Shown piece by piece: positions 20,462-41,700 of a stretch of DNA of 64,000 bases. The notes under the pieces are model-generated. The model was not told where the DNA came from. It saw only the letters and a list, made by a program, of their open reading frames with translations, and did not search any database. The number at the start of each line of letters is the position of its first letter. Position 1 is the stretch's first letter. The stretch spans positions 24,816-88,815 of the forward strand of contig CALIUM010000011.1 in NCBI GenBank assembly GCA_938048735.1, given 5' to 3'. Source of the stretch: an uncultured archaeon. Its GTDB lineage: Archaea > Thermoproteota > Bathyarchaeia > TCS64. The position numbers and the translations under genes were made by a program.

Positions 20462-20911
20462 GATGGATGCGACTATGGCGTTGTTGAGGCGGATCACATC
20501 CTCCACCCTAACCTCTAGGAGAAGGTCTCTGGATCCTCCCCCGCAGAATATCCTCTCAAGCTCAGTCAATTCATCATCTACAATCACCCTGACCCTCTCC
20601 CTGTAACCTAGCGATGGTGTTCCACCTGGAGGGTAGCCGCTCACAGCCTCAGCCTCCTCTGGGGATAGAAGTCTCACATTCCTCACTCCCAAAACTTCTG
20701 AGGCCTTCCGGAGATTTACCCTCCTATCCCCAGGAACTATCAGCACCACATGTTCCCCCCTATCCGTAACCGAGAGGAGGTTCTTTGTTATCCTGTGGAG
20801 CTCTATGCCTGTAGCTGAGGCCGCATCCGCGGTGTGTATGGTCTCACTTTTGGGGATGAACCTATGATAGACCCTCTTGCTCTTAAGATACTCCTCTAGA
20901 TGGCTCTTCAA
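20450..20911 (-). CDS. YbaK/ProX-family aminoacyl-tRNA deacylase
   Basis: 153 aa; conserved YbaK-like pattern (GGTPSLG...IFCGGGS); size typical of ProX. Confidence 0.6.
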   Translation of the reverse strand: MKSHLEEYLKSKRVYHRFIPKSETIHTADAASATGIELHRITKNLLSVTDRGEHVVLIVPGDRRVNLRKASEVLGVRNVRLLSPEEAEAVSGYPPGGTPSLGYRERVRVIVDDELTELERIFCGGGSRDLLLEVRVEDVIRLNNAIVASISEP

Positions 20912-21834
20912 TGGTCATCCCTTAGGATGGGGCAGGTCATGCAGTGGGGGCCTCCTCCACCGAGGCTTAACTGGCTTCCTGGAATCCTGATAACCTCGAG
21001 CCCTCTCTCCTCCAGTTCAGCTATTATCCTCTCGTTCCACTCATAGGAGACGCACTTGCCTCCACCTATCCCAACTATGTTCGTGCCGAACTGCCTCACC
21101 TCAGCGTCATCAGCATATATGAGCTCAATTCCCCTCTCCCTGAGATAGTCCTCCACGAATACCAGCTCCACCCCATCCTCGCTGTAGAGGTAGGCCGGGT
21201 ACATCTCAAGAGATGGTTTATGGATAAGGGCGAGATCGGGGGCCAGTATCATCAAACCCCCGTCTAGGTGGACCCTGAAGGAGGGCAATGGTACAGCTAG
21301 GAGCCTCTTGACGGCCTTCCCCAGCAGCGTTCTCTTAACCATCTCCAGGCCAACCTCGTTTGTCCTAGTTCCGAAGCCCACCATGAGGGTCTCCCGATCC
21401 AAGTATACGAAGTCTCCCCCCTCGACTGTGCCGGGAGGCTTCACCCTCAGGGCTATCGGGATGCCCAGCCTCTCCATAGCCTTCCCAACCAGGAGGGGCT
21501 CAGGATACCTCGCCTGATAAGTCATCCTCAGGACGAGGGCGCCAAGGTAGGTTACGCTGCAGACATCCCGCGTATAAACCAGGTTTGGGAGCCTCGCAGC
21601 GATCTCCCTGTCCCTTCCCTCGAGAAGATCTTCTAGGAGGATGACCTCCACCCCCTCCTCCCTAAGGGCCTCTGTGAAGGCATCGTGCTCCCTCTGGAAC
21701 ATCCTCCAATAGACCACATCCCTGAAGAGGTAGGCATCCCGATTGCTGGGGGTTATCCTCCTCAGCTCCTCCGATGGCCTATGCATCAAGACCTTCCTAA
21801 GCCGACCATACTCAGTCTGAGCTCCGAACTCCAA
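20908..21834 (-). CDS. Amidinotransferase/DDAH/arginine-deiminase superfamily enzyme (guanidino-group modifying)
   Basis: 308 aa; C-terminal catalytic Cys motif GGGPHCMTCPI; conserved D/H residues of the pentein fold. Confidence 0.7.
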   Translation of the reverse strand: MEFGAQTEYGRLRKVLMHRPSEELRRITPSNRDAYLFRDVVYWRMFQREHDAFTEALREEGVEVILLEDLLEGRDREIAARLPNLVYTRDVCSVTYLGALVLRMTYQARYPEPLLVGKAMERLGIPIALRVKPPGTVEGGDFVYLDRETLMVGFGTRTNEVGLEMVKRTLLGKAVKRLLAVPLPSFRVHLDGGLMILAPDLALIHKPSLEMYPAYLYSEDGVELVFVEDYLRERGIELIYADDAEVRQFGTNIVGIGGGKCVSYEWNERIIAELEERGLEVIRIPGSQLSLGGGGPHCMTCPILRDDH

Positions 21835-21955
21835 ATCTCGACCCCCTAAAGGTTAGAATAATCACTCCACCGTTCCCAATATAAAACCTCCTGTCTTGTC
21901 GAGACATTTGTTCATTCAACCCAGAAAGTAACACAAACAAGGTATCAATATCGGA

Positions 21956-22376
21956 TTGCCGATATCTTTTTATATCAGTTTATTCACTAAAACAATAGAG
22001 ATGAAATCAGTATCGTTGTTCTTGTTAGGTTTTCTCTCCCTTTTATCTATAAGTATAACCGTAGCTGCAGTTGTGGAGCCATATGTGTGGTACAAGTATC
22101 AAACTATTTCAGATAAGCTATATTTTGATCAATCTGGATCATTATTATAAAGAACCATATGCTGTGTCAGTAAGGATAAATGCTGTTGAACCATCTGGGG
22201 CTAAACTTAGAGTAGCAATTTATGTTAATTATGTGGAGAAATGGTTTGGATATCTCGGATCAGGAGAAAGTTCCCCCACAATCGTTTGTGTTGATCAAGA
22301 AACAATGGTAGATGTATGTAATAACACACAGGGATATATAGAATATAGAGGTCTTATAACTTGGGTTATGCATTGA
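21956..22376 (+). other. Two overlapping small ORFs in different frames (64 aa with signal peptide; 101 aa) in an AT-rich islet; possibly a frameshifted or degenerate gene
   Basis: ORF 21956-22150 (signal-peptide-like MKSVSLFLLGFLSLLSISITVAAV) overlaps ORF 22071-22376 in another frame; local GC is far below the genome background. Confidence 0.25.
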
Positions 22377-22526
22377 CTATAAAGATCAAAATGTTGGAGG
22401 GAATTAATGTTAGGATTTTTTACAAAAGAAATTTCTATAGATAGATATAAGTTATACTTATCCTCCAAAATTTAGATCAATAAATTTGTACTAAATATTT
22501 ACAAATCATGTATAAGTTGTTTTTCT

Positions 22527-23306
22527 TTGTCAAAAATGATAAAGGAAATGGAAGAGCTAGGTGAAAAAAGATATCAAACTGATAGAGGACAACTTTACGT
22601 TAAAGATCTCATCTACATAATTTCCTTGATAGGGCTGACTTTGGTCTCTGGTCTCTACATAGATCTGTATAGAAGGTTTAACTCTCAACATGATATCCTC
22701 CTGAAACAGGAAGAGGATCTTAGAATTTTGAGAGATAAATTTGATGATTTAATCCCCATCCTTGACCTTATAAACATGTCGTTAGAAAGGCCTCCAACCT
22801 ACTCCGATAGGGGTATTATTCTTGTCTCCGGCTATAGTATTGAGTACTGGGTTAGGAAGGTTGATTCAGACTTCAGGAGGAGCGCATTAACCTCCTTCGC
22901 CGTATTCTATGCCCCATATGAAGACTTAACTCTAAGGATGCATCTCTTCTTCTGGCCTAGGAATATTCTAGAGGTACCATTAACAATCCAGAGTGGGAAT
23001 GCACTCCGCAATGAGTCAGGTATCTTTGTTGGGAGGAGGGGCGACATAATCACCTGGCAGTCCCCAGTCGTCTGGTCGATAAACGTCAGCAAGGTTGGTA
23101 TCTATGAGACAATTCTACCATCCAAGGGTTGGTATACCCTATCCATATCAGGCCCAATTCAAATACAGAGTCGAGACGATCCCCAGTCCGCGACATCCCT
23201 TCACATCTCATACATCCCATACTTTAATGATCTCCAGATAAATTTAGATTTCAAACTCTTAAGGAATGGTGAGCCAGTCATTTTTGCTATTATGAGAAGA
23301 TGGTGA
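22527..23306 (+). CDS. Hypothetical membrane-anchored protein (AT-rich islet)
   Basis: 259 aa; one N-terminal TM helix (LIYIISLIGLTLVSGLYIDLY); no recognisable catalytic motif; AT-rich codon usage. Confidence 0.5.
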   Translation: MSKMIKEMEELGEKRYQTDRGQLYVKDLIYIISLIGLTLVSGLYIDLYRRFNSQHDILLKQEEDLRILRDKFDDLIPILDLINMSLERPPTYSDRGIILVSGYSIEYWVRKVDSDFRRSALTSFAVFYAPYEDLTLRMHLFFWPRNILEVPLTIQSGNALRNESGIFVGRRGDIITWQSPVVWSINVSKVGIYETILPSKGWYTLSISGPIQIQSRDDPQSATSLHISYIPYFNDLQINLDFKLLRNGEPVIFAIMRRW

Positions 23307-23476
23307 TAGGGTCGTTAAGGCCTTTAATTTTTCAAAAGTTCTCCAATATTAACTTATTGATTTACCTTTAGTCTTAGGTCTTCCTCATGAGAGGGGAGCC
23401 AGGGGGACTCATTCCGGCCTCAGGCCTCAAATATAGCTTTATACCATCCATCCGCAAAACTTCAATATGGTCAAGT

Positions 23477-25255
23477 ATGCTCTACGCCACCCTTGTTGAG
23501 GCTTACCAGAGGCTTGAGGCAACCACCAAGAGGCTCGAGATGACAGATATCTTGGCGGATATGCTCAGGAGGGCGGACCTGGATGAGATTGATAAGGTCA
23601 TCTACCTGACCCAGGGGAAGATCCACCCCGACTGGACTGGGGAGCCTGAGATAGGTATCGCTGAGAAGATGGCCATCGAGAGCATAGCTAGGGCATCGGG
23701 ATTGGGGAGGGAGGAGGTGGAGAGGCTCATGGCCGAGACCGGGGATATAGGCCTCGCCGCTGAGAGGGCTATGGAGAGGAGGCGCCTGGGAAGGCTCGGG
23801 GGAGGACAGCTAACGGTGTCTGATGTCTACAACACCTTTGATAGGATAGCGAAGGAGTCTGGTAAGGGGAGCAGCGAGAGGAAGATAGAGAGGCTTATAG
23901 GGCTGTTCTCTGAGGCCTCACCCCTAGAGGTTCGATACATAACTAGGACCGTTGTTGGAACCCTACGCCTGGGGGTCGGGGATATGACGATACTCGACGC
24001 ATTGGCCATCGCCTACACAGACTCAGCCGAGAATAGGGATATTCTTGAGAGGGCATACAACCTCACCAGCGACCTCGGATACGTCGCTAAAACTTTGGCG
24101 AGGGAAGGGCTTGAGGCCTTGGAGAGGGCCAAGCCGGTCCTCGGAAAGCCGATAAGGATGATGCTGGCCCAGCGCCTCTCAACTCCCCAGGAGATACTGG
24201 AGAAGCTTGGGGGAGGGGGCTCAGCTGAGTACAAGCTTGACGGGGAGCGATTCCAGATCCACAAGATGGGAAACGAGATCCAGATATTCTCAAGGAGGCT
24301 TGAGAACATCACCTCCATGTATCCTGACGCGGTGGAGATGGCGAGGAGATACATAAAGGCCAAGGAGGCCATCGTCGAGGGGGAGGCGGTGGCCATAGAC
24401 CCTGAGACCGAGGAGATGAGACCCTTCCAGGTCCTGATGCAGCGGCGGAGAAAATACAGGATAGAGGAGATGATGGAGAAGTTCCCAATCGCCCTATTCC
24501 TCTTCGAGTGCCTCTACGTAGACGGCGAAGACCTGACCCTCAAGCCTTACAGGGAACGCCGCAGGAGGCTCAAGGAGATTATCGAGGAGACCAGCAGGTT
24601 CCGACTAGTGAGATCCATAGAGACATCTGAGGCATCAGATCTTGAGAGGTTCTTCGAGGAGGCCATCACAGAGGGCTGTGAGGGCCTGATAGTGAAGTCA
24701 ACAGCCGACGACTCCCTATACAGGGCAGGGGCGAGGTCTTGGATGTGGGTCAAGCTGAAGAGGAGCTATCAGAGCAGGATGGTGGAGCCAGTCGACCTCG
24801 TAGTCGTAGGGGCCTTCCACGGGCGTGGCAAAAGAGCAGGCAGCTATGGAGCCCTCCTAGCCGCCGTATACGACCCATATGAGGATGTCTTCAAGACAGT
24901 CTGTAAGGTTGGCTCCGGCTTCACTGACGAGGACCTTGAGAGGCTGCCGAAGATGATGGAGGAGTACAGGCGCGGGGAGAAACATCCAAGGGTAGACTCC
25001 CTCATAGAGGCCGATATCTGGTTCACCCCCAGCCTGGTCATAGAGGTTATAGGGGACGAGATCACCCTGAGCCCGGTCCACACGGCCGCCTTCAACACTA
25101 TAAGGGTCAACTCAGGCCTCGCCATCAGGTTCCCCAGGTTCACAGGTAGGTGGAGGTCAGATAAGGCCCCTGAGGACGCGACCACAGTGGCTGAGATCGT
25201 CGATATGTATAAATCCCAGCTCAAGACCATAGCAGGGGAGGCCGAGGAGAGGTAG
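23477..25255 (+). CDS. lig: ATP-dependent DNA ligase
   Basis: Adenylation motif KLDGERFQIHK (KxDGxR); OB and DNA-binding domains; start moved to MLYATLVEAYQRLE (the track ORF begins at 23387). Confidence 0.9.
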   Translation: MLYATLVEAYQRLEATTKRLEMTDILADMLRRADLDEIDKVIYLTQGKIHPDWTGEPEIGIAEKMAIESIARASGLGREEVERLMAETGDIGLAAERAMERRRLGRLGGGQLTVSDVYNTFDRIAKESGKGSSERKIERLIGLFSEASPLEVRYITRTVVGTLRLGVGDMTILDALAIAYTDSAENRDILERAYNLTSDLGYVAKTLAREGLEALERAKPVLGKPIRMMLAQRLSTPQEILEKLGGGGSAEYKLDGERFQIHKMGNEIQIFSRRLENITSMYPDAVEMARRYIKAKEAIVEGEAVAIDPETEEMRPFQVLMQRRRKYRIEEMMEKFPIALFLFECLYVDGEDLTLKPYRERRRRLKEIIEETSRFRLVRSIETSEASDLERFFEEAITEGCEGLIVKSTADDSLYRAGARSWMWVKLKRSYQSRMVEPVDLVVVGAFHGRGKRAGSYGALLAAVYDPYEDVFKTVCKVGSGFTDEDLERLPKMMEEYRRGEKHPRVDSLIEADIWFTPSLVIEVIGDEITLSPVHTAAFNTIRVNSGLAIRFPRFTGRWRSDKAPEDATTVAEIVDMYKSQLKTIAGEAEER

Positions 25256-31672: not shown

Positions 31673-31745
31673 GGGCTGGTAGATCAGTGGTATGATCGCC
31701 GCCTTGGCAGGGCGGAAGTCGCGGGTTCAAATCCCGCCCAGTCCA
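31673..31745 (+). tRNA. tRNA-Ala (anticodon GGC), no intron, CCA not encoded
   Basis: Acceptor GGGCTGG/CCAGTCC (one G-U pair); D-arm GATC-AGTGGTAT-GATC; anticodon stem CCGCC/GGCGG with loop TTGGCAG; T-arm GCGGG-TTCAAAT-CCCGC; discriminator A. Confidence 0.85.
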
Positions 31746-31867
31746 CTCTTCTTTTGGAAAATGGACCCCGTTTAAAGCCTCGATCAATCTTCTGAGGCAG
31801 AAATTGAAGGCCCAAGCCAGGTCAAGGTTCAATTCTTTAGCCCTTTTTAGGAGATCATCGTTCATTC

Positions 31868-33581: not shown

Positions 33582-34562
33582 ATGAAAACAAAAATACCAT
33601 TAGTATGCTTAATTATAATATCTATATCAATTATGGTTATTCCATCTCATTGTGCAGAAGAAGGAGGATGGATCTCATGGTATAAAGTAGAAGATTTAAA
33701 GACGAAAAAATTGATAATGGAAAAAGATCTTATAACAGGAAATGAAAAAATCTATGAACCTGTACTTAGCGGTGCAGAATATAATGTAACTGTTGTTTTA
33801 AATATCGCTGTAACTGTACCTCGATCTGTTTTGAAGATCAATACATCATTAGAACGTGCAAGCTTGTTGGATAGGTTTTGGGAGCTTCACACTAAAGATT
33901 ATCCTATGGTTAATTATAATCCAAGTGAAAAAGCTGTAAGATTTAACCAGGTCAAAGGAAATCTTACAATATCAATGTATGGAAGAATTCCTCAAAATAT
34001 AACAGAAAAAATTTTTAACGGATATGTTATTAATAAAGCGGTTGATTATTCCGTTTTAGAATTGAGAGGTCCAAACGATGAAATATTAGATTATTTATCT
34101 TTCAATGTGATAGATTCAAAAATTCATGAATATCGAAATTTGTTAAGGTCAAAAGAAAATGATTTGAAAAATATTAAAAATCAAGGAGTAATAAGTTCAT
34201 ATGTTAAGTTATATGAAAAAATGTTAAATCAATCAAAGTTTGAGGCAGAAAAGGGTTTCATAGATAATGCCATAAAAATATTGAATTTGTTATCTATAGA
34301 AGGAGCTCCCAAAGAACCAACCCCATCAATTTTAGAAACATTATTTTACCCAACTGTTTTGATACTAATAGGTGTGATTGTATTTACCGGATTCATGTTT
34401 CAAAGAAGCAGAGCTAAATTGAATTATACCTTAATGGTGGTTGAAGAACAAGTCAAAGAGCTGGAGGGTCTAGGGGTCAGATTATCTAAAATAGATAAAA
34501 ATATTTCTTTAAATTTGGATGGTATTAAAGATAGGCTGAAAAGGTTGGTTGGGGTGTCCTGA
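33582..34562 (+). CDS. Type-I membrane protein: signal peptide, ~220-aa extracellular domain with several N-glycosylation sequons, single TM helix, ~55-aa cytoplasmic tail
   Basis: N-terminal LVCLIIISISIMVIPSHC; NVT/NTS/NLT/NIT sequons; TM TVLILIGVIVFTGFMF followed by QRSRAK; the stop overlaps the next gene start (translational coupling). Confidence 0.6.
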   Translation: MKTKIPLVCLIIISISIMVIPSHCAEEGGWISWYKVEDLKTKKLIMEKDLITGNEKIYEPVLSGAEYNVTVVLNIAVTVPRSVLKINTSLERASLLDRFWELHTKDYPMVNYNPSEKAVRFNQVKGNLTISMYGRIPQNITEKIFNGYVINKAVDYSVLELRGPNDEILDYLSFNVIDSKIHEYRNLLRSKENDLKNIKNQGVISSYVKLYEKMLNQSKFEAEKGFIDNAIKILNLLSIEGAPKEPTPSILETLFYPTVLILIGVIVFTGFMFQRSRAKLNYTLMVVEEQVKELEGLGVRLSKIDKNISLNLDGIKDRLKRLVGVS

Positions 34563-37218
34563 TTTGTCAAAACAGCCCTCTAACATAATTCACCTAATAG
34601 GTTTAGGTTCCGCTGGGACGAATATAGTTGAAGCCTTTATTTCAAGTAAGAAAACCATGAACTTATTAGAAAATGAAAATACTCGCCTATCCCTTTTAGC
34701 TATAGATGTTGCAGATCCAGATATCAGAAGTTTGCAGGAAACATATAGTAAATTATTAAAGGAGATGAAAGATAAGGGCATACCTAAAGAAAGAATTTCT
34801 CTAATAGCTCAATCCATTAAATTTCCAACCGCTGAAGCTATGTTTGACTTTATAAATGAAAAATATAAAGATCATTTAATTAGTGAGGGTGTAACTCTTG
34901 AGGAATATTCCCCGTGGTTGCCTTCAACGATGGCGATACCACCTCTAGCAGGAGGCGCTGGTAGGAGAAGAGCTCTGGCTAAGGCGATATACGCCTTAAA
35001 CTATTACCAACTTGGAATCATAAGAAACTTCTTGAACTCTTTCAAGGAACAGGCCCTCTCATCGATAATGACCCCAATAGTGATGATCATCTACGGGATA
35101 GGTGGGGGGACCGGGAGCGGGATAGCCTTCGAGTTCGCTAGGCACCTCAGGAAGGTTCTAGGTTCAGGAGTTCCGATCATAGGCATGTCCATCCTTCCAT
35201 GCAGGGGGGATGACCCGCCCGCCAAGGGCTGCTCGGCCTTCTCCTCGTTAACCGAACTCTCACTGCTGTTGAATAAGGACTATAACGATTATATATGCAA
35301 GAATTATGGTGAATTCTATAGAAACCCCTTCAACGCATTTATATGCATTCCACTAACTCCAGCATATTCAAATACAGGGAACATAATAGTAGCTAGAAAA
35401 GATATCGATGAAATGATTATAGATATAATATATATGTTAATGGATTTTGATTTATCTGATCTATTAGGGGGAATAGGAACTGAAGTAGGGTTAACCGAAG
35501 ATTATATTCATACAATAAGTATGACAAAAGTTGTTTATCCAGTAGATGAATATATAGATGCTTTTAAAATATACTTAGATAGAATACAAACTTTATACGA
35601 ATTCAGAAAAGAGAAACTTGAAATAATAAACAATATTAATGAAATATTGATGCTAAGATATAATGATATAAAGGAAATCCTAAAAATGTATTTGATAAAA
35701 ACAGGAACATATGTGGAAGAACAATTCGATGAAAAAACTAAATCCATAATAAGGAGCTCATCAAGATTTAACGAAGATTATTGGTTATATATCAAAGGAG
35801 TAGAAGATCAAATAAAAAATTGGATTAGTGAATTGTCAAAATTCTTGACAACAATAAAATTGACAGCTAAAACCGGGACAATAGAAGACGCCATTGTCAA
35901 TTTAACACTCCACAAAGAGGAATCAAGGGAAATGGATAATCTCGAAGATCTATTAACAAATATCACAAAAACATACATTGAATTCCCAGAAAAAAAGGGG
36001 ATAATTTTTGAAAGATTAAAACAGTTAATTCCAAGCTCACAAATACTTACTATAAGACAGAAAAGGATTTTAGATGATTTAATGAACATTACAGAAATTG
36101 TAGATAAAACTCTCCAAATATTTAAATTATATAATGAATCCAGATTTTTAACAGAAACATTAATTAGATATTACTCAGCAATTCCTGAAACAGAATCAAT
36201 ATCGAGAGAATTAAAAGAGATCAGAACAGAACTTACATGTTTATACTATATTGTCCAACTAATCTTGAAAACCCCATTAGATGAAGCTAAAATAATAGAT
36301 GAAAATTTGACTTATCTTCAAGGAATCATAAATAAGATAAGGGATGAAATTAACGTTATAAATGAGGAAATATTGAGAATGGAAGAATCGAAAAAGAGAA
36401 AGGAATTTGATCGTACAAAGTATGAACAAGAAATTGGAAGGTTTTTTGGAATAGGTAGAAGAAAATATATTAAAGAAAAACTGGCTAAGTTAGAGATTGA
36501 TATAAAAAGAATCGAGGAAGAGAAAATTTATTTAGAGAAAAATGCCAAAGATTATGATGTTTTACTAAGATCTTATAATAACTTGATGAGAAAAATTGAT
36601 GTCACTTCAGATTATAGAAGAAAGTTGAACAAGATTATAGAATTATATGGCGCCTATCAAGATAAGATATCTGATGTTCTTAAACCAAAAAAATATTTTG
36701 AAAAGACAACCGAACTAACTGAAACAGAACAAGTAAAAATAATATATAAAATTTTAGCCGAACAAGAGGAAGATTTATCAAGAGAAGGTATCTTAAAAGA
36801 AATCCTTGATACAGATCATTTTAAGGACTATATGAAAAGTGTGATTAGGATTTTCAGGACTCCAAGTTTTATGGGTTTAAATACATCATTTAAATCAGAT
36901 TACATATGGGTAACAGTTCAGACCCCCCAGGGTCTTTGGAATGAAGAATTAACTCAAGAGATTTACACTGTTTTAGCAGGATATATTGTGGGAGAAGTAT
37001 CAAGGAATGTTACAATTAGAATAATAGATTCAAGGGATCCATGGACGATAAGGATTCTTGTTGTAGGTGGAAGAGGAAAACCTATGAATTTAGAAACATA
37101 TGATGAGATGCATGTGCTTTACAATAAATCAACAGAATTTGAAAAACAACTTTCTAGATCCTTTTTAATTGAGCATGAAATCAACATTAATAAGATTATC
37201 GATAAAATAAATCTTTAG
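34549..37218 (+). CDS. Divergent FtsZ/tubulin-superfamily GTPase (N-terminal ~330 aa) fused to a ~560-aa coiled-coil-rich C-terminal region
   Basis: T1-like IGLGSAGTN; T2/T3-like LLAIDVADPD and AGGAGRRRALAKA; T4 tubulin signature GIGGGTGSG; T5-like MSILPCRGDDPPAKG; the remainder is heptad-rich K/E/I/L sequence. Confidence 0.7.
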   Translation: MGCPDLSKQPSNIIHLIGLGSAGTNIVEAFISSKKTMNLLENENTRLSLLAIDVADPDIRSLQETYSKLLKEMKDKGIPKERISLIAQSIKFPTAEAMFDFINEKYKDHLISEGVTLEEYSPWLPSTMAIPPLAGGAGRRRALAKAIYALNYYQLGIIRNFLNSFKEQALSSIMTPIVMIIYGIGGGTGSGIAFEFARHLRKVLGSGVPIIGMSILPCRGDDPPAKGCSAFSSLTELSLLLNKDYNDYICKNYGEFYRNPFNAFICIPLTPAYSNTGNIIVARKDIDEMIIDIIYMLMDFDLSDLLGGIGTEVGLTEDYIHTISMTKVVYPVDEYIDAFKIYLDRIQTLYEFRKEKLEIINNINEILMLRYNDIKEILKMYLIKTGTYVEEQFDEKTKSIIRSSSRFNEDYWLYIKGVEDQIKNWISELSKFLTTIKLTAKTGTIEDAIVNLTLHKEESREMDNLEDLLTNITKTYIEFPEKKGIIFERLKQLIPSSQILTIRQKRILDDLMNITEIVDKTLQIFKLYNESRFLTETLIRYYSAIPETESISRELKEIRTELTCLYYIVQLILKTPLDEAKIIDENLTYLQGIINKIRDEINVINEEILRMEESKKRKEFDRTKYEQEIGRFFGIGRRKYIKEKLAKLEIDIKRIEEEKIYLEKNAKDYDVLLRSYNNLMRKIDVTSDYRRKLNKIIELYGAYQDKISDVLKPKKYFEKTTELTETEQVKIIYKILAEQEEDLSREGILKEILDTDHFKDYMKSVIRIFRTPSFMGLNTSFKSDYIWVTVQTPQGLWNEELTQEIYTVLAGYIVGEVSRNVTIRIIDSRDPWTIRILVVGGRGKPMNLETYDEMHVLYNKSTEFEKQLSRSFLIEHEININKIIDKINL

Positions 37219-37269: not shown

Positions 37270-38445
37270 TTACCCTAAAACATCTTTAAATTTTACTTTA
37301 TCTATTATACCTTTTTTAGTTAGGTATTCAATTGTTTCTCTTGATTTCTCTTCTAATAAATTCAAAATTTTTTCTTCATTAAAACCTCCAACTATAATCA
37401 TAATATCTATTCTGTCATTTGTTTCGTCTATAAAAATAGGATCACTAATATATATTGCTTTTGGTGTTGACTTTTCTCTTATCCATCTTATAAAGGTGGA
37501 TTCGATTTTTTCTTTGGTAATTTCACCCCTCAATTTAACTGGGATCCTGGCTAACACATAAAAAATATATGATTCTTTTAAATCAAAATTTAAGAGCGTT
37601 CTATATAACATTGAATTAAATATGTTTTCTAGAGAATCATAAATTTTCAGGCTGCAACCAGTAGAAATTAATATTGTATATAATTTAATATCGAAGTATT
37701 TTGAAAATCTTATAAAATCATTCACGAAACTCACTTTAGATAACATCAACCCTAGAATTTCATTCAGGATCATGCTCCCTTTAATTAAATTACCTTTCCT
37801 GTCAACTCCAACATAGTCTTCTAGAAGATCTCTGTTTATTATAAAGATTGGATAAAATCCTTTATTTATGCAAATAGTTATTGATGATACAGAATTAAAA
37901 TGGGCATCGGAGGGTTGTGTTGGAGATGGTATCAAAGCTATAGAGATCAAATCTATTTTCCATTCCATTAACTTTGATGTTATATATGGAAAAAGACCAC
38001 TTCCAACCCCATCCCATGTAGATGAAACTATTAATGCAGATTTAACCTTATGTAGAAGCCTGTCTTTTAAATCTGAATCTAATAATCCTCTCTTTTCAAT
38101 ATATTCATACATATTAAAACAAAAATGTTCATCGATATTAGGGTCGACATCTATAAAACTAAAAAAATCTATTTTATCAATGAAATTTTCTATGAAGAAT
38201 TCACTTTTCTTACCAATTAGGAGAAACAAAATATCGTTAGATGATTTTAACGATAAATTTTTTAAAAAAATGTTGTTTGTATATCCACCTAAACTTATAG
38301 ATGCTCTTTCTGGTATCCTGAGTTTCAATGACCTAATATGCCTCAAAACACTTTCAAGCACATCGAATGATTCTATACTCATCAGGTCACGAAGTAAACT
38401 TTTAAAGGCCTTACAAATAAATATTATGAATGAAGGCCATGCCAC
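37270..38445 (-). CDS. Degenerate FtsZ/tubulin-like paralog (possible pseudo-GTPase partner)
   Basis: Weakened motifs at FtsZ-like spacing: SLGGYTNN (T1), FIDVDPNI (T2/3), SSTWDGVGSG (T4, vs GGGTG[ST]G), IALIPSPTQPSD (T5); the start is probably the internal MSIESF (38382). Confidence 0.5.
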   Translation of the reverse strand: MAWPSFIIFICKAFKSLLRDLMSIESFDVLESVLRHIRSLKLRIPERASISLGGYTNNIFLKNLSLKSSNDILFLLIGKKSEFFIENFIDKIDFFSFIDVDPNIDEHFCFNMYEYIEKRGLLDSDLKDRLLHKVKSALIVSSTWDGVGSGLFPYITSKLMEWKIDLISIALIPSPTQPSDAHFNSVSSITICINKGFYPIFIINRDLLEDYVGVDRKGNLIKGSMILNEILGLMLSKVSFVNDFIRFSKYFDIKLYTILISTGCSLKIYDSLENIFNSMLYRTLLNFDLKESYIFYVLARIPVKLRGEITKEKIESTFIRWIREKSTPKAIYISDPIFIDETNDRIDIMIIVGGFNEEKILNLLEEKSRETIEYLTKKGIIDKVKFKDVLG

Positions 38446-40784
38446 GATTACATGATTCAGTTAAATTCATCCAAAGAATAATTAAAATTTTTACTTTTTC
38501 AGTTTCTTTTTCCGCCCTTTCTATGGGCCTTTCCTTCATTCCACTTCTTCCTCAACCCATACCACTAATAATATCTTTCATCATTTCTTTTTTAATACTG
38601 AATAATCGCAGAGAGGGAATGATTATGGGAAGCTTTCTAATTGGATTAGGATTAATATATCATTTGAGTAGAATAAACCTTATTTTAATACTTGGAAGCA
38701 CTGAAACAAAACTACTTTTTTTAAGTATTTTAATAATTTTTTTCCTTTTTACCCCAATAATTGCAAAAATATATGAAGATATCATAGCTATTTCTATTGG
38801 AATCATCGCTGCATCAATGCTTTTTTTCAATCAAATATACTTTTTCGCAGTACCCCTAATAATAGTTTTTGCAGGGATATACAAAAAACAAAGGATATGG
38901 CTAACATTATCATATTATGCTGTTATCTCGATTCCAATACAAATAATGCAATACATAAAATACATTTACAATGAAGAATATCATACTCTACCACCTTTAT
39001 ATGTTCCATTATCAGAAATCTTTAACGATATACAAGAATCAATGAAAAAAATAAGTATAAATGAAATATCAAGGGTTTTAGATATTATTTCTGGGCAGTT
39101 TAAATCGAGGTCAGACTCAACACTAAAATTCATGATAAATGCCGTATCTGAATATATAAACTCATTTCCAGGAGTCATTTTCTTTTTGATAATAATGTTC
39201 AGCCTTGTTTCCATAACTGCCTACATAATGTCTAATTCATTGAAAATCATCGAAAGTATGGAGATAACAAAAAAATATTCCAAATTCCTAGAAATATTTT
39301 TTTCAGTTATCACTGTAACGATAATTACAACACTATTCTATACATTTCTTATAATTCTTCAAGAACCATTATCCTACGTGGCAGAAATAAATCTTTTCAA
39401 CACAATGGCAGGCATTATTGGAACAGTATTAACTACCATCCCAATTTCCTTCATAAATTATGAGATGAAAATCAGCAAAATAATAGAAAGGCGCTCTGAA
39501 ATAATAAGAAGAAATTCTGAAAAATTAATGGATGATATGGAAAATTTTAACGAATTAATTAGAAAAATCAGTAAAAATATCCCAGTTAATGTTGACTCTC
39601 TAAAAAGTGAAGCTGTTTCAATTGAGGAAAAAATTAAAGATATATTGGATAATATAAAATATGGAATTTATGGTTTAACAGATTTGGAAAGTAAAATTTC
39701 AGCAATAGATACTGAAATAAAAGATGAAGTAAATAATTTATACAAAAAATTAAATACTGTATTGAATGAATATTATAGGAATGAAGACTATGACTTCAAT
39801 ACATTGCTAGAAAATTATAAAAAAATAGGAATTGAAATAAATGGCGAGATATCAATAAATTACATAGATGATGAACCAATAGAAATAAAAATAGAGAAAA
39901 TAGAAATGATGCTAAATAAGCAATGGGAAATAACTGAAAAAATTTTAGACATATATGAAAAAATATATAACATACTAAGAAATTATTATGATCCTTTACT
40001 TCCAGAAGAAAATCCTACTCTGGCTATTGCAAAACAAAAATTTCAAGAAAGGCAGTTTCCATGCGTTATCCTAGAGGCAGTATATATCTCGATTAATAAT
40101 CTGGAAATGCAATACTCAAAAGAAATATCTAATACTATTAACAGGTTAATTGAACTTATGAATTCAACAAAAAACATTTATATAAATAAAGAAAAATCAA
40201 CGATCTTAAGTAAGGAAATTCGTGATAGATTAATAGATGCTGAAAATAAGGTAAATAATTTAATAGAGATATCTGAGAAAAAAGTTTTCACTATAACTAA
40301 GGTTATTAAAGTAAACGAAATAATAAATGAATATGTAAAAATATATAAAGAGATGTTTCAAGACATATACGAAGAAATAACTCTAAAAGAAGGTCATATC
40401 GAAAAATTAGCAATTAGTGAGGGAATAAAATTTACAAAAAACAATCAAGTAAAAGACAAAATAATTTACATTTTAGAAACCCTAAAACGGCCTCATATTT
40501 ATAATATTAATGAAACTATAATTAATTTAGAAAAGTTTTTAATGCAAATTGATGAATGTTTCGAAATTATATCTAATTATAATGAAACTGAGGAAATCCT
40601 AGCGAACTACGAGATTTCAGAGTTAATTATGAAAAAACTATTAAGAGAAAAGGGATTAATAAAAATAAATGAACTTCCATTCAAAAAAGAAATTGCAAAA
40701 AAATATATGGAGATTTTCAGTCAGCGATATAAAAAAGATGTGATGCTTGATTTTGAAACATTTACAATTTACAGAGGGGATTAA
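38430..40784 (+). CDS. Polytopic membrane protein (~8 TM helices, N-terminal ~330 aa) with a ~450-aa coiled-coil cytoplasmic domain
   Basis: Multiple long hydrophobic segments followed by heptad-rich Lys/Glu/Ile/Asn sequence; AT-rich codon usage. Confidence 0.6.
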   Translation: MKAMPRLHDSVKFIQRIIKIFTFSVSFSALSMGLSFIPLLPQPIPLIISFIISFLILNNRREGMIMGSFLIGLGLIYHLSRINLILILGSTETKLLFLSILIIFFLFTPIIAKIYEDIIAISIGIIAASMLFFNQIYFFAVPLIIVFAGIYKKQRIWLTLSYYAVISIPIQIMQYIKYIYNEEYHTLPPLYVPLSEIFNDIQESMKKISINEISRVLDIISGQFKSRSDSTLKFMINAVSEYINSFPGVIFFLIIMFSLVSITAYIMSNSLKIIESMEITKKYSKFLEIFFSVITVTIITTLFYTFLIILQEPLSYVAEINLFNTMAGIIGTVLTTIPISFINYEMKISKIIERRSEIIRRNSEKLMDDMENFNELIRKISKNIPVNVDSLKSEAVSIEEKIKDILDNIKYGIYGLTDLESKISAIDTEIKDEVNNLYKKLNTVLNEYYRNEDYDFNTLLENYKKIGIEINGEISINYIDDEPIEIKIEKIEMMLNKQWEITEKILDIYEKIYNILRNYYDPLLPEENPTLAIAKQKFQERQFPCVILEAVYISINNLEMQYSKEISNTINRLIELMNSTKNIYINKEKSTILSKEIRDRLIDAENKVNNLIEISEKKVFTITKVIKVNEIINEYVKIYKEMFQDIYEEITLKEGHIEKLAISEGIKFTKNNQVKDKIIYILETLKRPHIYNINETIINLEKFLMQIDECFEIISNYNETEEILANYEISELIMKKLLREKGLIKINELPFKKEIAKKYMEIFSQRYKKDVMLDFETFTIYRGD

Positions 40785-41700
40785 AATGTATTCGTTTCAA
40801 GGATATAAAGTAGGTTTAGGCAATATCAAATTGGATATATTTGATGATCGAATTGAAATATATCTTGAAAGAGGTTATCTAAAAAAGAGTAAAGAAGTTG
40901 TGAAGGTAATTTATTTTAAAGAGATCAATAAGCTTGAAACCAATAATAATGACCTTATTATTTACTTTACTAGTGGTGAAATATATAATATAAGTTTCGA
41001 ACAAAGAGAAATATTGAAAAATATATATGATGAGTTAATTGTTATCTTAACGAAAATTAATGGCAATACTGACCGCAAAATCAGTGCAACTATGTTAACT
41101 GATTTAACTAAAAAATCTATTTGTTTGATTGATTTTTTATTTGATGTTGTTTTAAACTTACGGGGCAAAATTTTCTGGGAAAATTTAGAAAAGAATCTAA
41201 AAGATATGAAGAAAGTTTATGAAGATATTAAAGCAATTTATAATAATTTTGTGGATCTCGAATTTATGGAGGTTGAGAAAAACATAACTGATCGTAATCC
41301 TGAACAGATCCCCCTGAAGGTGTTTGATTATGTAAAACTAATATTGTCTTTTTATAGAGGTTTAGAAAAAATTGATGATAAAGATTTGATTATTTTAAAA
41401 TCTAAAATTATGGATTTTTCAAAAATTATTGAATCTGAGATATTATTGAACGATATAATAATAGGTATAATTCTAGGAGATGGCTTTGTCGATGAAGAAA
41501 TTGAGGTTTTTATAAATCTAATAAACCCCCTATTCAAAAAAATTAACATTACTTTAGAAAGAAGTGATATAATAAATCAATTCGAAGAACTAAAGTTTAA
41601 GGGAAAAGATTATCAAGTAATAAATAAAATTAGGAATTTCTTTAAGGATTTAGTCATGAGATATTTCTCTGGTGAAGGATTAAAGGTTTCCCTTCTATGA
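40747..41700 (+). CDS. Hypothetical soluble Lys/Ile/Glu-rich protein, last gene of the island operon
   Basis: 317 aa; overlaps the upstream gene end; no motif recognised. Confidence 0.5.
   Translation: MILKHLQFTEGIKMYSFQGYKVGLGNIKLDIFDDRIEIYLERGYLKKSKEVVKVIYFKEINKLETNNNDLIIYFTSGEIYNISFEQREILKNIYDELIVILTKINGNTDRKISATMLTDLTKKSICLIDFLFDVVLNLRGKIFWENLEKNLKDMKKVYEDIKAIYNNFVDLEFMEVEKNITDRNPEQIPLKVFDYVKLILSFYRGLEKIDDKDLIILKSKIMDFSKIIESEILLNDIIIGIILGDGFVDEEIEVFINLINPLFKKINITLERSDIINQFEELKFKGKDYQVINKIRNFFKDLVMRYFSGEGLKVSLL

Follow-up and report, generated by a model that had tools for sequence, protein, structure and literature searches.

The window analysed here, a stretch of 64,000 nucleotides (contig CALIUM010000011.1 of assembly GCA_938048735.1, positions 24,816 to 88,815 of the forward strand), comes from an uncultured archaeon of the Bathyarchaeia (lineage TCS64) and carries a cassette of five genes, named A to E, of which D encodes a polytopic membrane protein and E, the gene that follows it, a smaller partner. 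It is reasonably likely that D and E supply the membrane-side subunits of a chromosomal cassette conserved in the Bathyarchaeia and centred on FtsZl1, a protein of the tubulin/FtsZ superfamily (Tubulin_2 in Pfam; gene B), and that D is its membrane scaffold. The link of D to FtsZ-like genes is strongly supported. As they are fixed neighbours of two tubulin/FtsZ-like genes (B and C) across the Bathyarchaeia, D and E probably belong to one tubulin-family machine that is membrane-bound and so far uncharacterised. Gene linkage and protein architecture make a role of the two proteins as membrane anchor or adaptor plausible. By their sequences, both are protein families without annotation, since neither has a match above threshold in Pfam, NCBIfam, PADLOC or PHROG.

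There are 24 close homologues of D among 5.8 billion clustered proteins, and a profile search returned 173 representative clusters among 1.84 billion proteins. When one genome per GTDB species was scanned, D was found in 73 genomes, nearly all of which are labelled Bathyarchaeia or Bathyarchaeota, and some of the genes sit on contigs of 0.6-2.5 Mb. The linkage was counted at 57 loci with at least 5.2 kb of sequence upstream of D, which were searched with proteins A-E of the window. Both A and B (Tubulin_2) are near D in 56 of the 57 loci and C in 55 of them, and the order A+ B+ C- D+ is found essentially everywhere among the Bathyarchaeia loci. The few exceptions include one locus with A, B and D present and no C (L055) and another in a frameshift-ridden assembly (L053). 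The initial annotation had proposed the link to FtsZ-like genes and had set, as the result that would speak against it, homologues found consistently without such a neighbour; with Tubulin_2 beside D at all counted loci except one, the link has withstood that search.

Three distant clades of D are also known, which match the D of the window in phmmer with E-values of 2e-22, 5e-11 and 5e-10. Their loci were obtained with an alignment of distant members, a search that returned five proteins and three usable loci, and the 90%-identity cluster to which one of the clades belongs contains a protein with the label Nitrososphaerota/Thaumarchaeota. The distant clades hold the same four families A-D in other orders (D-C and B-A on opposite strands, or A-B-D-x-C). 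The gene set has been kept through rearrangement and is therefore strong evidence of a functional module.

The open reading frames (ORFs) reported in the initial annotation at 38430-40784 (784 aa) and 40747-41700 (317 aa) are present and belong to real, conserved genes. The ORF of D begins with ATG on the forward strand. The public gene call (P0001) has 719 aa and leaves out the first 65 residues (38430-38624); it is too short, because the homologues (777-805 aa) align from about residue 17. The omitted part comprises the first transmembrane (TM) helix, an LPQPLP loop and TM2, all of which are conserved across the D family. In a Kyte-Doolittle scan the strongly hydrophobic segments of D are confined to residues 1-345, and the AlphaFold2 model, built on the 24 homologues with a mean predicted local distance difference test score (pLDDT) of 83.3, places ten helices in the same region. 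The mean number of lysines plus arginines (K+R) over the 24 members is 6.5 at the N-terminus, 1.1-2.7 in the even-numbered loops and 0-0.6 in the short odd-numbered loops. The orientation is inferred from the positive-inside rule only: the pattern therefore predicts that both termini and the helical region lie in the cytoplasm (N-in/C-in) and that the loop 181-245 is outside. According to the model and the charge counts of the family, this loop has 65 aa, is net acidic and forms three short helices. The defensible range for D is 8-10 TM helices, because three of the ten segments are weakly hydrophobic. Hence the initial estimate of about eight hydrophobic helices is acceptable, but the model and the K+R counts favour ten. 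A topology without TM helices, the other result named in advance as damaging to the anchor role, was not obtained; rather, D has both TM helices and a cytoplasmic helical domain.

In the AlphaFold2 model, TM10 runs on as a single helix of 62 residues (322-383), and residues 346-725 (about 380 aa) are almost wholly alpha-helical, with breaks that leave nine or more helices, each 15-60 residues long. Of the 28-residue windows, 13% score above the 99th percentile of shuffles for heptad periodicity, and the heptad-rich stretches are confined to residues of about 357-472 and 632-720. The cytoplasmic domain is thus more aptly called an arm of many helices, coiled-coil-like in some stretches, than one coiled coil of 450 aa. 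What stands of that earlier description is the cytoplasmic helical region itself; its length, its continuity and its heptad pattern throughout do not, and its end is formed by a different module. This C-terminal module is modelled as helix, strand, helix and two strands at residues 727-782. Foldseek gave it local matches to the winged helix-turn-helix (wHTH) domains of CapW and BrxR over 62-63 residues, with a root-mean-square deviation (rmsd) of 1.9-2.3, a probability of 0.95-0.97 and poor E-values of about 6-7. Residues 726-784 are provisionally regarded as winged-helix-like on the strength of the model.

Among 52 full-length sequences of D from all clades, the best conserved blocks are residues 17-180 (TM1-7) and 726-784, and the most variable parts are the helical arm and the outside loop. 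Fourteen positions are conserved in at least 85% of the sequences, and all of them are Pro, Gly, Leu, Phe or Tyr, none being charged or typically catalytic. Conserved positions are P38, P41, Y77, G124, L131, P142, P169 and F303 in the membrane domain and Y727, L749, P750 and Y759 in the end module. The initial annotation had noted that the two proteins lack a recognisable catalytic motif, and the database searches agree with it; likewise, the P-loop (GxxxxGK[ST]) and the tubulin signature are absent from D. Conservation of TM1-7 and the end module, together with a variable arm and no charged conserved positions, fits a scaffold with a docking module and not an enzyme or a transporter.

This pattern bears directly on the proposal that D is primarily a transporter, channel or lipid-handling protein, which the tubulin-like neighbours would regulate or position and whose arm would be regulatory rather than an anchor. 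Such a function would agree with the ten TM helices and with the concentration of 23 of the 28 invariant columns of the Bathyarchaeia in the TM domain, among them the polar Q171, Q223, Q311, S204 and S245, as well as with a YED motif that is nearly invariant in the same group where TM5 begins. The best full-length Foldseek matches of D are also transporters (SLC9C1 and LYCHOS), at non-significant E-values of at least 0.07 and a TM-score of about 0.09. However, D matches no transporter family of Pfam or NCBIfam and has no internal or inverted TM repeat and no significant fold match, and the polar TM residues are not conserved across the wider family, in which only Pro, Gly and aromatic positions are. 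The proposal is accordingly rated as unlikely.

The end module invites another explanation, namely that D is a membrane-bound sensor and transcription regulator whose outside loop senses a signal and whose winged helix binds DNA, for example at the divergent promoter between C and D. Its closest structural matches are indeed DNA-binding regulators, and in the Bathyarchaeia D is divergent from C over an intergenic region of 47 nt. However, the net charge of the module is near zero, with a mean of +0.9 over the 52 sequences, and the helix taken as its third has an acidic/hydrophobic character (consensus KYAEEYLxLFY); both features point, weakly, to protein rather than DNA binding. The divergent arrangement of D and the C homologue is absent from the distant clades. 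The cassette contains no repeated operator-like sequences, and an arm of about 380 aa is unusual for one-component membrane regulators. A regulator is a very unlikely identity for D.

Other searches with D gave no further lead. Foldseek returned no significant fold match, and hhalign detected no internal repeats in the TM or helical part. A Pfam scan of all 24 members produced merely sub-threshold matches to Baculo_PEP_C, located in the helical arm. Profile matches of D in the PDB (gas vesicle protein 6l5d at 5.9e-4, HA2 and ApoA-I) were attributed to compositional or heptad similarity and not to homology. A defence or phage origin of D and E was likewise rejected, as PADLOC gave LeoA at 0.004 on the arm alone and PHROGs gave nothing for either protein.

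The initial annotation let the gene of the partner E overlap the end of D, which is true of the longest ORF only, the one of 317 aa with a TTG start. All eight homologues of E (8/8) have 301-304 aa and match this query from residue 14, a methionine, onwards with 96% coverage; the true start is therefore the ATG at 40786, which gives 304 aa. This ATG is 1 nt past the TAA of D (40782-40784), and a GGGG stands about 8 nt before it. By this comparison the TTG form is an over-extension of ORF calling, D and E abut without overlap, and E is probably translationally coupled to D. The richness of the partner in K, I and E (and N), as described earlier, is real but follows the GC content of the genes of D and E, which is 25-26%.

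The AlphaFold2 model of E, a predicted and not an experimental structure, was made from a shallow alignment of 8 sequences and has an overall pLDDT of 53, with about 80 for residues 1-91. In this part, strands are predicted at 2-8, 12-18, 22-29, 35-43, 47-53, 56-61 and 66-70, followed by a helix at 74-91, which together make the seven-stranded antiparallel sandwich closed by a C-terminal helix that characterises PH-like domains. Against the PDB, Foldseek matched residues 1-91 to PH, PTB and FERM-F3 domains with E-values from 2.6e-4, a probability of 1.00 and an rmsd of about 3 Å over about 95 residues, and the named matches include GRK2 PH, Exo84, Brag2, Dok7, IRS-1 PTB, FERM F3 and Evectin-2. 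The curated PH-type families (PH, bPH_1-6, GRAM and GLUE) gave no match for the E of the window or for two further members of its family. The rest of E, which is helical, corresponds by homology to an entire 234-aa protein that follows D in another clade of Bathyarchaeia (BLASTP 8e-15, residues 114-287) and that is without the PH-like part.

Of 60 loci, 10 have a detectable E-like gene, and these belong to the clade of the window and some other clades. In two of the distant clades, a protein of about 325 aa follows D with overlapping stop and start codons (L083, 6531-7514; L085, 5774-6748). These proteins show weak Pfam matches to bPH, GRAM and Vps36-GLUE, sub-threshold at L083 (0.026-0.075), together with a helical C-terminal part. 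With the broader E alignment, hhalign aligned them collinearly at an E-value of 4.6e-4 and a probability of 33%, which is suggestive only, and with the narrow E alignment the comparison was not significant (0.23). Taken from these sequences, E may be an ancient component that has often been lost. An ORF of about 224 aa that follows D in 33 loci (for example L011, in the largest clade of Bathyarchaeia) was considered as an analogue of E and rejected, as its motif VIIVDDGIATGSTM is phosphoribosyltransferase-like; by this motif it looks like a conserved housekeeping neighbour outside the module.

The cassette lies in an AT-rich block with sharp borders at 33.4-41.75 kb of the window, which contains exactly the five genes A-E. 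Its guanine plus cytosine (GC) content is 0.288 compared with 0.530 for the rest of the window, and the GC content of third codon positions (GC3) is 0.22-0.29 compared with 0.68-0.74 in the flanks. This composition is an argument for the view, also implied by the initial annotation, that the five genes form a mobile island: cargo, such as a tubulin-based partition or exclusion system, brought in by a virus or plasmid that has integrated or by another mobile element. A tRNA-Ala(GGC) gene, the sole tRNA gene of the window (31673-31746), is located 1.8 kb upstream of the cassette, with no integrase or att-like repeat beside it. Moreover, members of the FtsZl1 family are carried by mobile elements of archaea, since nearly all Borg extrachromosomal elements of Methanoperedens are reported to encode FtsZl1/Tubulin_2-type proteins, which have about 1057 aa and include a long coiled coil (bioRxiv 10.1101/2024.11.05.622173; PMC9879509).

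However, relatives of D are lacking in IMG/VR, INPHARED and PLSDB and, by fold, in BFVD. No integrase was found, the borders of the island have no flanking direct repeats of at least 10 nt and no att-like repeats, and the cassette has no centromere-like repeats. The same chromosomal site, with a zinc-ribbon gene, the cassette and gamma-glutamyltranspeptidase near EF-2, is found in three relatives (L078, L079 and L080), whose D proteins are 83% (L078) and 63% (L079 and L080) identical to that of the window; a fourth close relative (L005, 57-58%) also has a low-GC cassette. At 4-fold degenerate sites, the identity between the window and L079 is 0.50-0.58 for the cassette genes and 0.50-0.55 for the flanking genes. 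The shared site and the equal divergence of these positions imply that the cassette was already in the ancestor of the clade and diverged in step with its surroundings. The GC deficit of 0.21-0.25 is confined to this clade (the window, L078, L079, L080 and L005); in about 60 other Bathyarchaeia, some with the cassette on Mb-sized chromosomal contigs, the GC content of the cassette equals that of its flanks (mean difference -0.018). Hence the low-GC island is a chromosomal, syntenic cassette, and mobile cargo is a very unlikely account of it. The GC3 contrast persists in the clade of the window despite the equal 4-fold divergence. D and E evolve faster than B and the flanks within the clade: the identity to L079 is 63% for D and 42% for E compared with 88% for B and 82-98% for typical flanking proteins.

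The three neighbours upstream of D help to place it. Protein B consists of an N-terminal GTPase domain, which carries the motif GIGGGTGSG, a middle part rich in heptads and a C-terminal domain that is conserved, and it matches Tubulin_2 (PF13809, 8.8e-13, 48.7 bits at a cut-off of 27) and Tubulin (PF00091, 9.6e-10). Because of these matches and the motif, it is assigned to the FtsZl1 family of Makarova and Koonin (PMC2875224). B is very highly conserved: over 53 sequences, blocks of 30 residues have conservation values of 0.63-0.92. At its C-terminus (37100-37218), a variable tail is directly preceded by the conserved motif LSRS[FY]L[LI]EHG. Protein A, whose gene overlaps the start of B by 14 nt, has a signal-like N-terminal hydrophobic segment, an outside domain of about 220 aa, a TM helix at about 248-276 and a cytoplasmic tail of 50 aa, and its family is recognised in the distant clades by phmmer (8e-30 and 7e-16). 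Conservation in A is highest in this tail (residues 277-326; 34412-34562), a pattern compatible with several membrane subunits meeting at a cytoplasmic core; the consensus of the tail reads VLEDQIKDLEGL..R.SKIDR....L..VKDRLK.L. Judged by conservation, this tail and the LSRS[FY]L[LI]EHG motif of B are candidate interaction peptides.

Protein C is a second, shorter tubulin-like protein. Its ORF extends to a GTG at 38445 (391 aa in the ORF list), and its start is placed at the ATG at 38382, giving about 370 aa, because the homologues have 368-377 aa and the sequence agrees. C has a weak Pfam Tubulin match (0.0055) and is homologous (8e-22 and 1e-16) to proteins of 445 and 453 aa in the distant clades, of which the 453-aa protein reaches the Pfam Tubulin cut-off of 33 (33.6 bits) and the 445-aa protein is just short of it (31.9). 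These distant homologues keep GGG[TM]GSG and have an N-terminal zinc ribbon. In the window, C has WDGVGSG in place of GGGTGSG, and among 64 aligned homologues all C proteins of Bathyarchaeia have WDG[VI]GS[AG]. Thus a canonical-looking FtsZl1 is paired throughout the Bathyarchaeia with a systematically altered paralogue, and C may, from its signature, be a non-catalytic partner of FtsZl1.

In 2010, Makarova and Koonin (PMC2875224) predicted a membrane-remodelling system with FtsZl1 at its core, and the overall role of membrane remodelling or shaping considered here is carried over from that prediction for FtsZl1 operons. In the mechanism proposed for the cassette, the conserved core of ten TM helices would seat D in the membrane as a structural scaffold, TM10 would extend into the variable and partly heptad-patterned helical spacer of about 380 aa, and the winged-helix-like head, as modelled, would dock a cytoplasmic partner, probably B and/or C. 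E would be a clade-variable peripheral accessory, whose modelled PH-like domain may bind the membrane surface or a partner peptide. The physical contacts among D, B, C and E are all inferred.

Several observations weigh against D and E as membrane-side subunits of the FtsZl1 cassette. At one locus (L023, CAVZJV010000014.1, a contig of 2.47 Mb), C and D occur with no A or B within 8 kb upstream. The winged-helix assignment of D depends on a predicted structure and on local matches in Foldseek whose E-values are poor. In the Bathyarchaeia the TM core is the most conserved part of D, and its invariant glutamines and serines could indicate a membrane function beyond anchoring. E is absent from most cassettes and is therefore not essential to the module. 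Lastly, FtsZ filaments require the T6-H7 elements and a C-terminal domain that could not be identified in FtsZl1, and filament formation by FtsZl1 has been questioned (PMC2875224).

A wider reading is offered tentatively and is on balance doubtful: the Bathyarchaeia and a few related uncultured lineages would have a dedicated membrane-embedded tubulin-family machine, in which FtsZl1 and a paralogue with a degenerate GTP site are held by the docking module of D and the tail of A, with a PH adaptor in some of them. If this is true, the FtsZl1/C pair loosely recalls the catalytic/non-catalytic tubulin pair, and the cassette would supply a prokaryotic membrane-cytoskeleton linker with PH-like and winged-helix-like modules, folds better known from eukaryotic membrane remodelling. 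D and E would then be new families and the first concrete candidates for membrane receptors of FtsZl1, a protein that is still uncharacterised in the searchable literature. The cassette is a compact and strongly conserved version, of four to five genes, in one of the most abundant groups of sediment archaea, from which an enrichment or culture is reported (bioRxiv 10.1101/2022.10.23.513425). The two conserved ends of D, the TM core and the winged-helix-like module, suggest contact sites, and the delimited set of candidate partners makes the question of FtsZl1 binding directly testable. A PH-like domain and a winged-helix-like module are thereby added to the parts found beside archaeal cytoskeletal genes, which does not of itself reveal the cellular function of the cassette.

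Table 1. Features of the cassette, with positions in the window
Feature	Position	Strand	Basis or remark
A, type-I membrane protein, 326 aa	33582..34562	+	First gene of the cassette
B, FtsZl1-type protein of the tubulin/FtsZ superfamily, 889 aa	34549..37218	+	Pfam
C, second, shorter tubulin-like paralogue, 370 aa	37270..38382	-	Weak Pfam Tubulin match, distant homologues
C/D divergent intergenic region, 47 nt	38383..38429	.	Sequence inspection
D, polytopic membrane protein, 784 aa, stop included	38430..40784	+	ATG ORF, 24 homologues aligned full length
D residues 17-345, predicted membrane domain, about 10 TM helices, N-in/C-in	38478..39464	+	Hydropathy, AlphaFold2, K+R counts
D residues 181-245, net-acidic loop TM7-TM8, predicted outside	38970..39164	+	AlphaFold2, K+R counts
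D residues 346-725, predicted cytoplasmic all-alpha region	39465..40604	+	AlphaFold2, heptad scan, conservation
D residues 726-784, provisional winged-helix-like C-terminal module	40605..40781	+	AlphaFold2, local Foldseek matches
E, partner protein, 304 aa from ATG	40786..41700	+	Homologue lengths, sequence
E residues 1-91, predicted PH-like domain	40786..41058	+	AlphaFold2, Foldseek against the PDB
E residues 92-304, alpha-helical domain, low-confidence model	41059..41697	+	AlphaFold2, BLASTP

The region between C and D contains a single AT-rich TTTTAAA element at 38400-38406, about 20-27 nt from the starts of both genes. Judged by its sequence, the region is a possible shared archaeal promoter, with the element as TATA box for leaderless divergent transcripts. 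A scan for sigma-70 promoters and terminators found fewer sites than in shuffled sequences, and it is uninformative for an archaeon. Apart from two weak repeats of 21 nt within coding sequence, neither tandem nor iteron-like repeats were found in the cassette. Elsewhere in the window, at 21900-23400, there is another low-GC patch of smaller size (GC 0.29-0.44), with an amidinotransferase/arginine-deiminase-like gene on one side (20908-21834, -) and an ATP-dependent DNA ligase-like gene on the other (23387-25255, +); its ORFs are 22071-22376 and 22527-23306, the latter of 259 aa with one hydrophobic segment.

Known systems resemble the cassette in part. The TubZRC plasmid partition system consists of the filament-forming TubZ, the wHTH adaptor TubR and the centromere tubC. 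Like it, the cassette has a divergent tubulin-family gene beside a protein with a putative winged-helix module. Unlike it, B is a Tubulin_2 protein and not TubZ, the winged-helix-like module is near-neutral and is the tail of a protein with ten TM helices, centromere repeats are lacking, and the cassette is chromosomal and syntenic.

EzrA is a regulator of FtsZ in Firmicutes with a membrane anchor of one TM helix and a long, spectrin-like helical cytoplasmic domain. D similarly has a membrane-embedded N-terminus followed by cytoplasmic antiparallel helices over several hundred residues, and a tubulin-superfamily protein is present in the same organism. It differs from EzrA in having about ten TM helices rather than one, in the additional winged-helix-like end module, and in a partner that would be FtsZl1 and not FtsZ. 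None of the 24 members of the D family matched the EzrA family of Pfam (PF06160) at an E-value of 1 or below, and D has neither a detectable repeat unit nor a fold match. The proposed role of D, a membrane protein that presents a cytoplasmic docking domain to a tubulin-family protein, is also that of the tethers ZipA, SepF and FtsA. Those proteins attach by a single TM helix or by an amphipathic helix and recognise the C-terminal peptide of FtsZ, whereas the C-terminus of B has LSRS[FY]L[LI]EHG and a variable tail; Pfam, NCBIfam and PDB sequence searches gave no match to them, and there is no fold similarity. EzrA and the ZipA-type tethers can thus be regarded as the nearest functional analogues, by analogy of role, with their defining sequence and fold features lacking in D. 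Likewise, residues 1-91 of E model as the helix-capped seven-stranded sandwich of PH, PTB, FERM-F3, GLUE and bPH domains; unlike these domains, they match no Pfam family and are fused to a helical domain of about 210 aa.

The closest comparison is with the FtsZl1 operons themselves. Archaeal operons comprise A2 (a small membrane-associated protein), FtsZl1, a membrane-associated P-loop GTPase and A1 ('mixed alpha and beta'); bacterial ones have vWA, OmpA-like, kinase and GTPase genes, vWA being present in the majority of operons, mainly bacterial; and further genes are lineage-specific and often encode membrane proteins (PMC2875224). The cassette agrees with them in several respects. Its B belongs to Tubulin_2/FtsZl1 and is built of an N-terminal GTPase domain, a middle part of coiled coil and a helical domain at the C-terminus. 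A is likened to A2 by description, being membrane-associated, located directly upstream with an overlap of the FtsZl1 start, and of similar size (326 aa compared with 164-334 aa). Further lineage-specific membrane proteins are clustered with these genes, and the cassette, which is chromosomal, occurs alongside canonical division genes. D is not A1, again by description, since A1 is 'mixed alpha and beta' and not membrane-associated (PMC2875224). Unlike the known operons, the cassette is without vWA, OmpA-like, kinase and P-loop GTPase genes and has C, D and sometimes E. No vWA domain was found by Pfam in A-E or among the neighbours at L001-L004 and L078-L085, and no P-loop GTPase match of Pfam or NCBIfam was found in C, D or E, C being tubulin-like instead. 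No published account of the Bathyarchaeial cassette or of the D and E families was found in the searchable literature, in which one study mentions 'non-canonical FtsZ-like sequences' in Bathyarchaeia and nothing further. The cassette is hence a lineage-specific variant of the predicted FtsZl1 membrane module, to which it adds two unannotated protein families.

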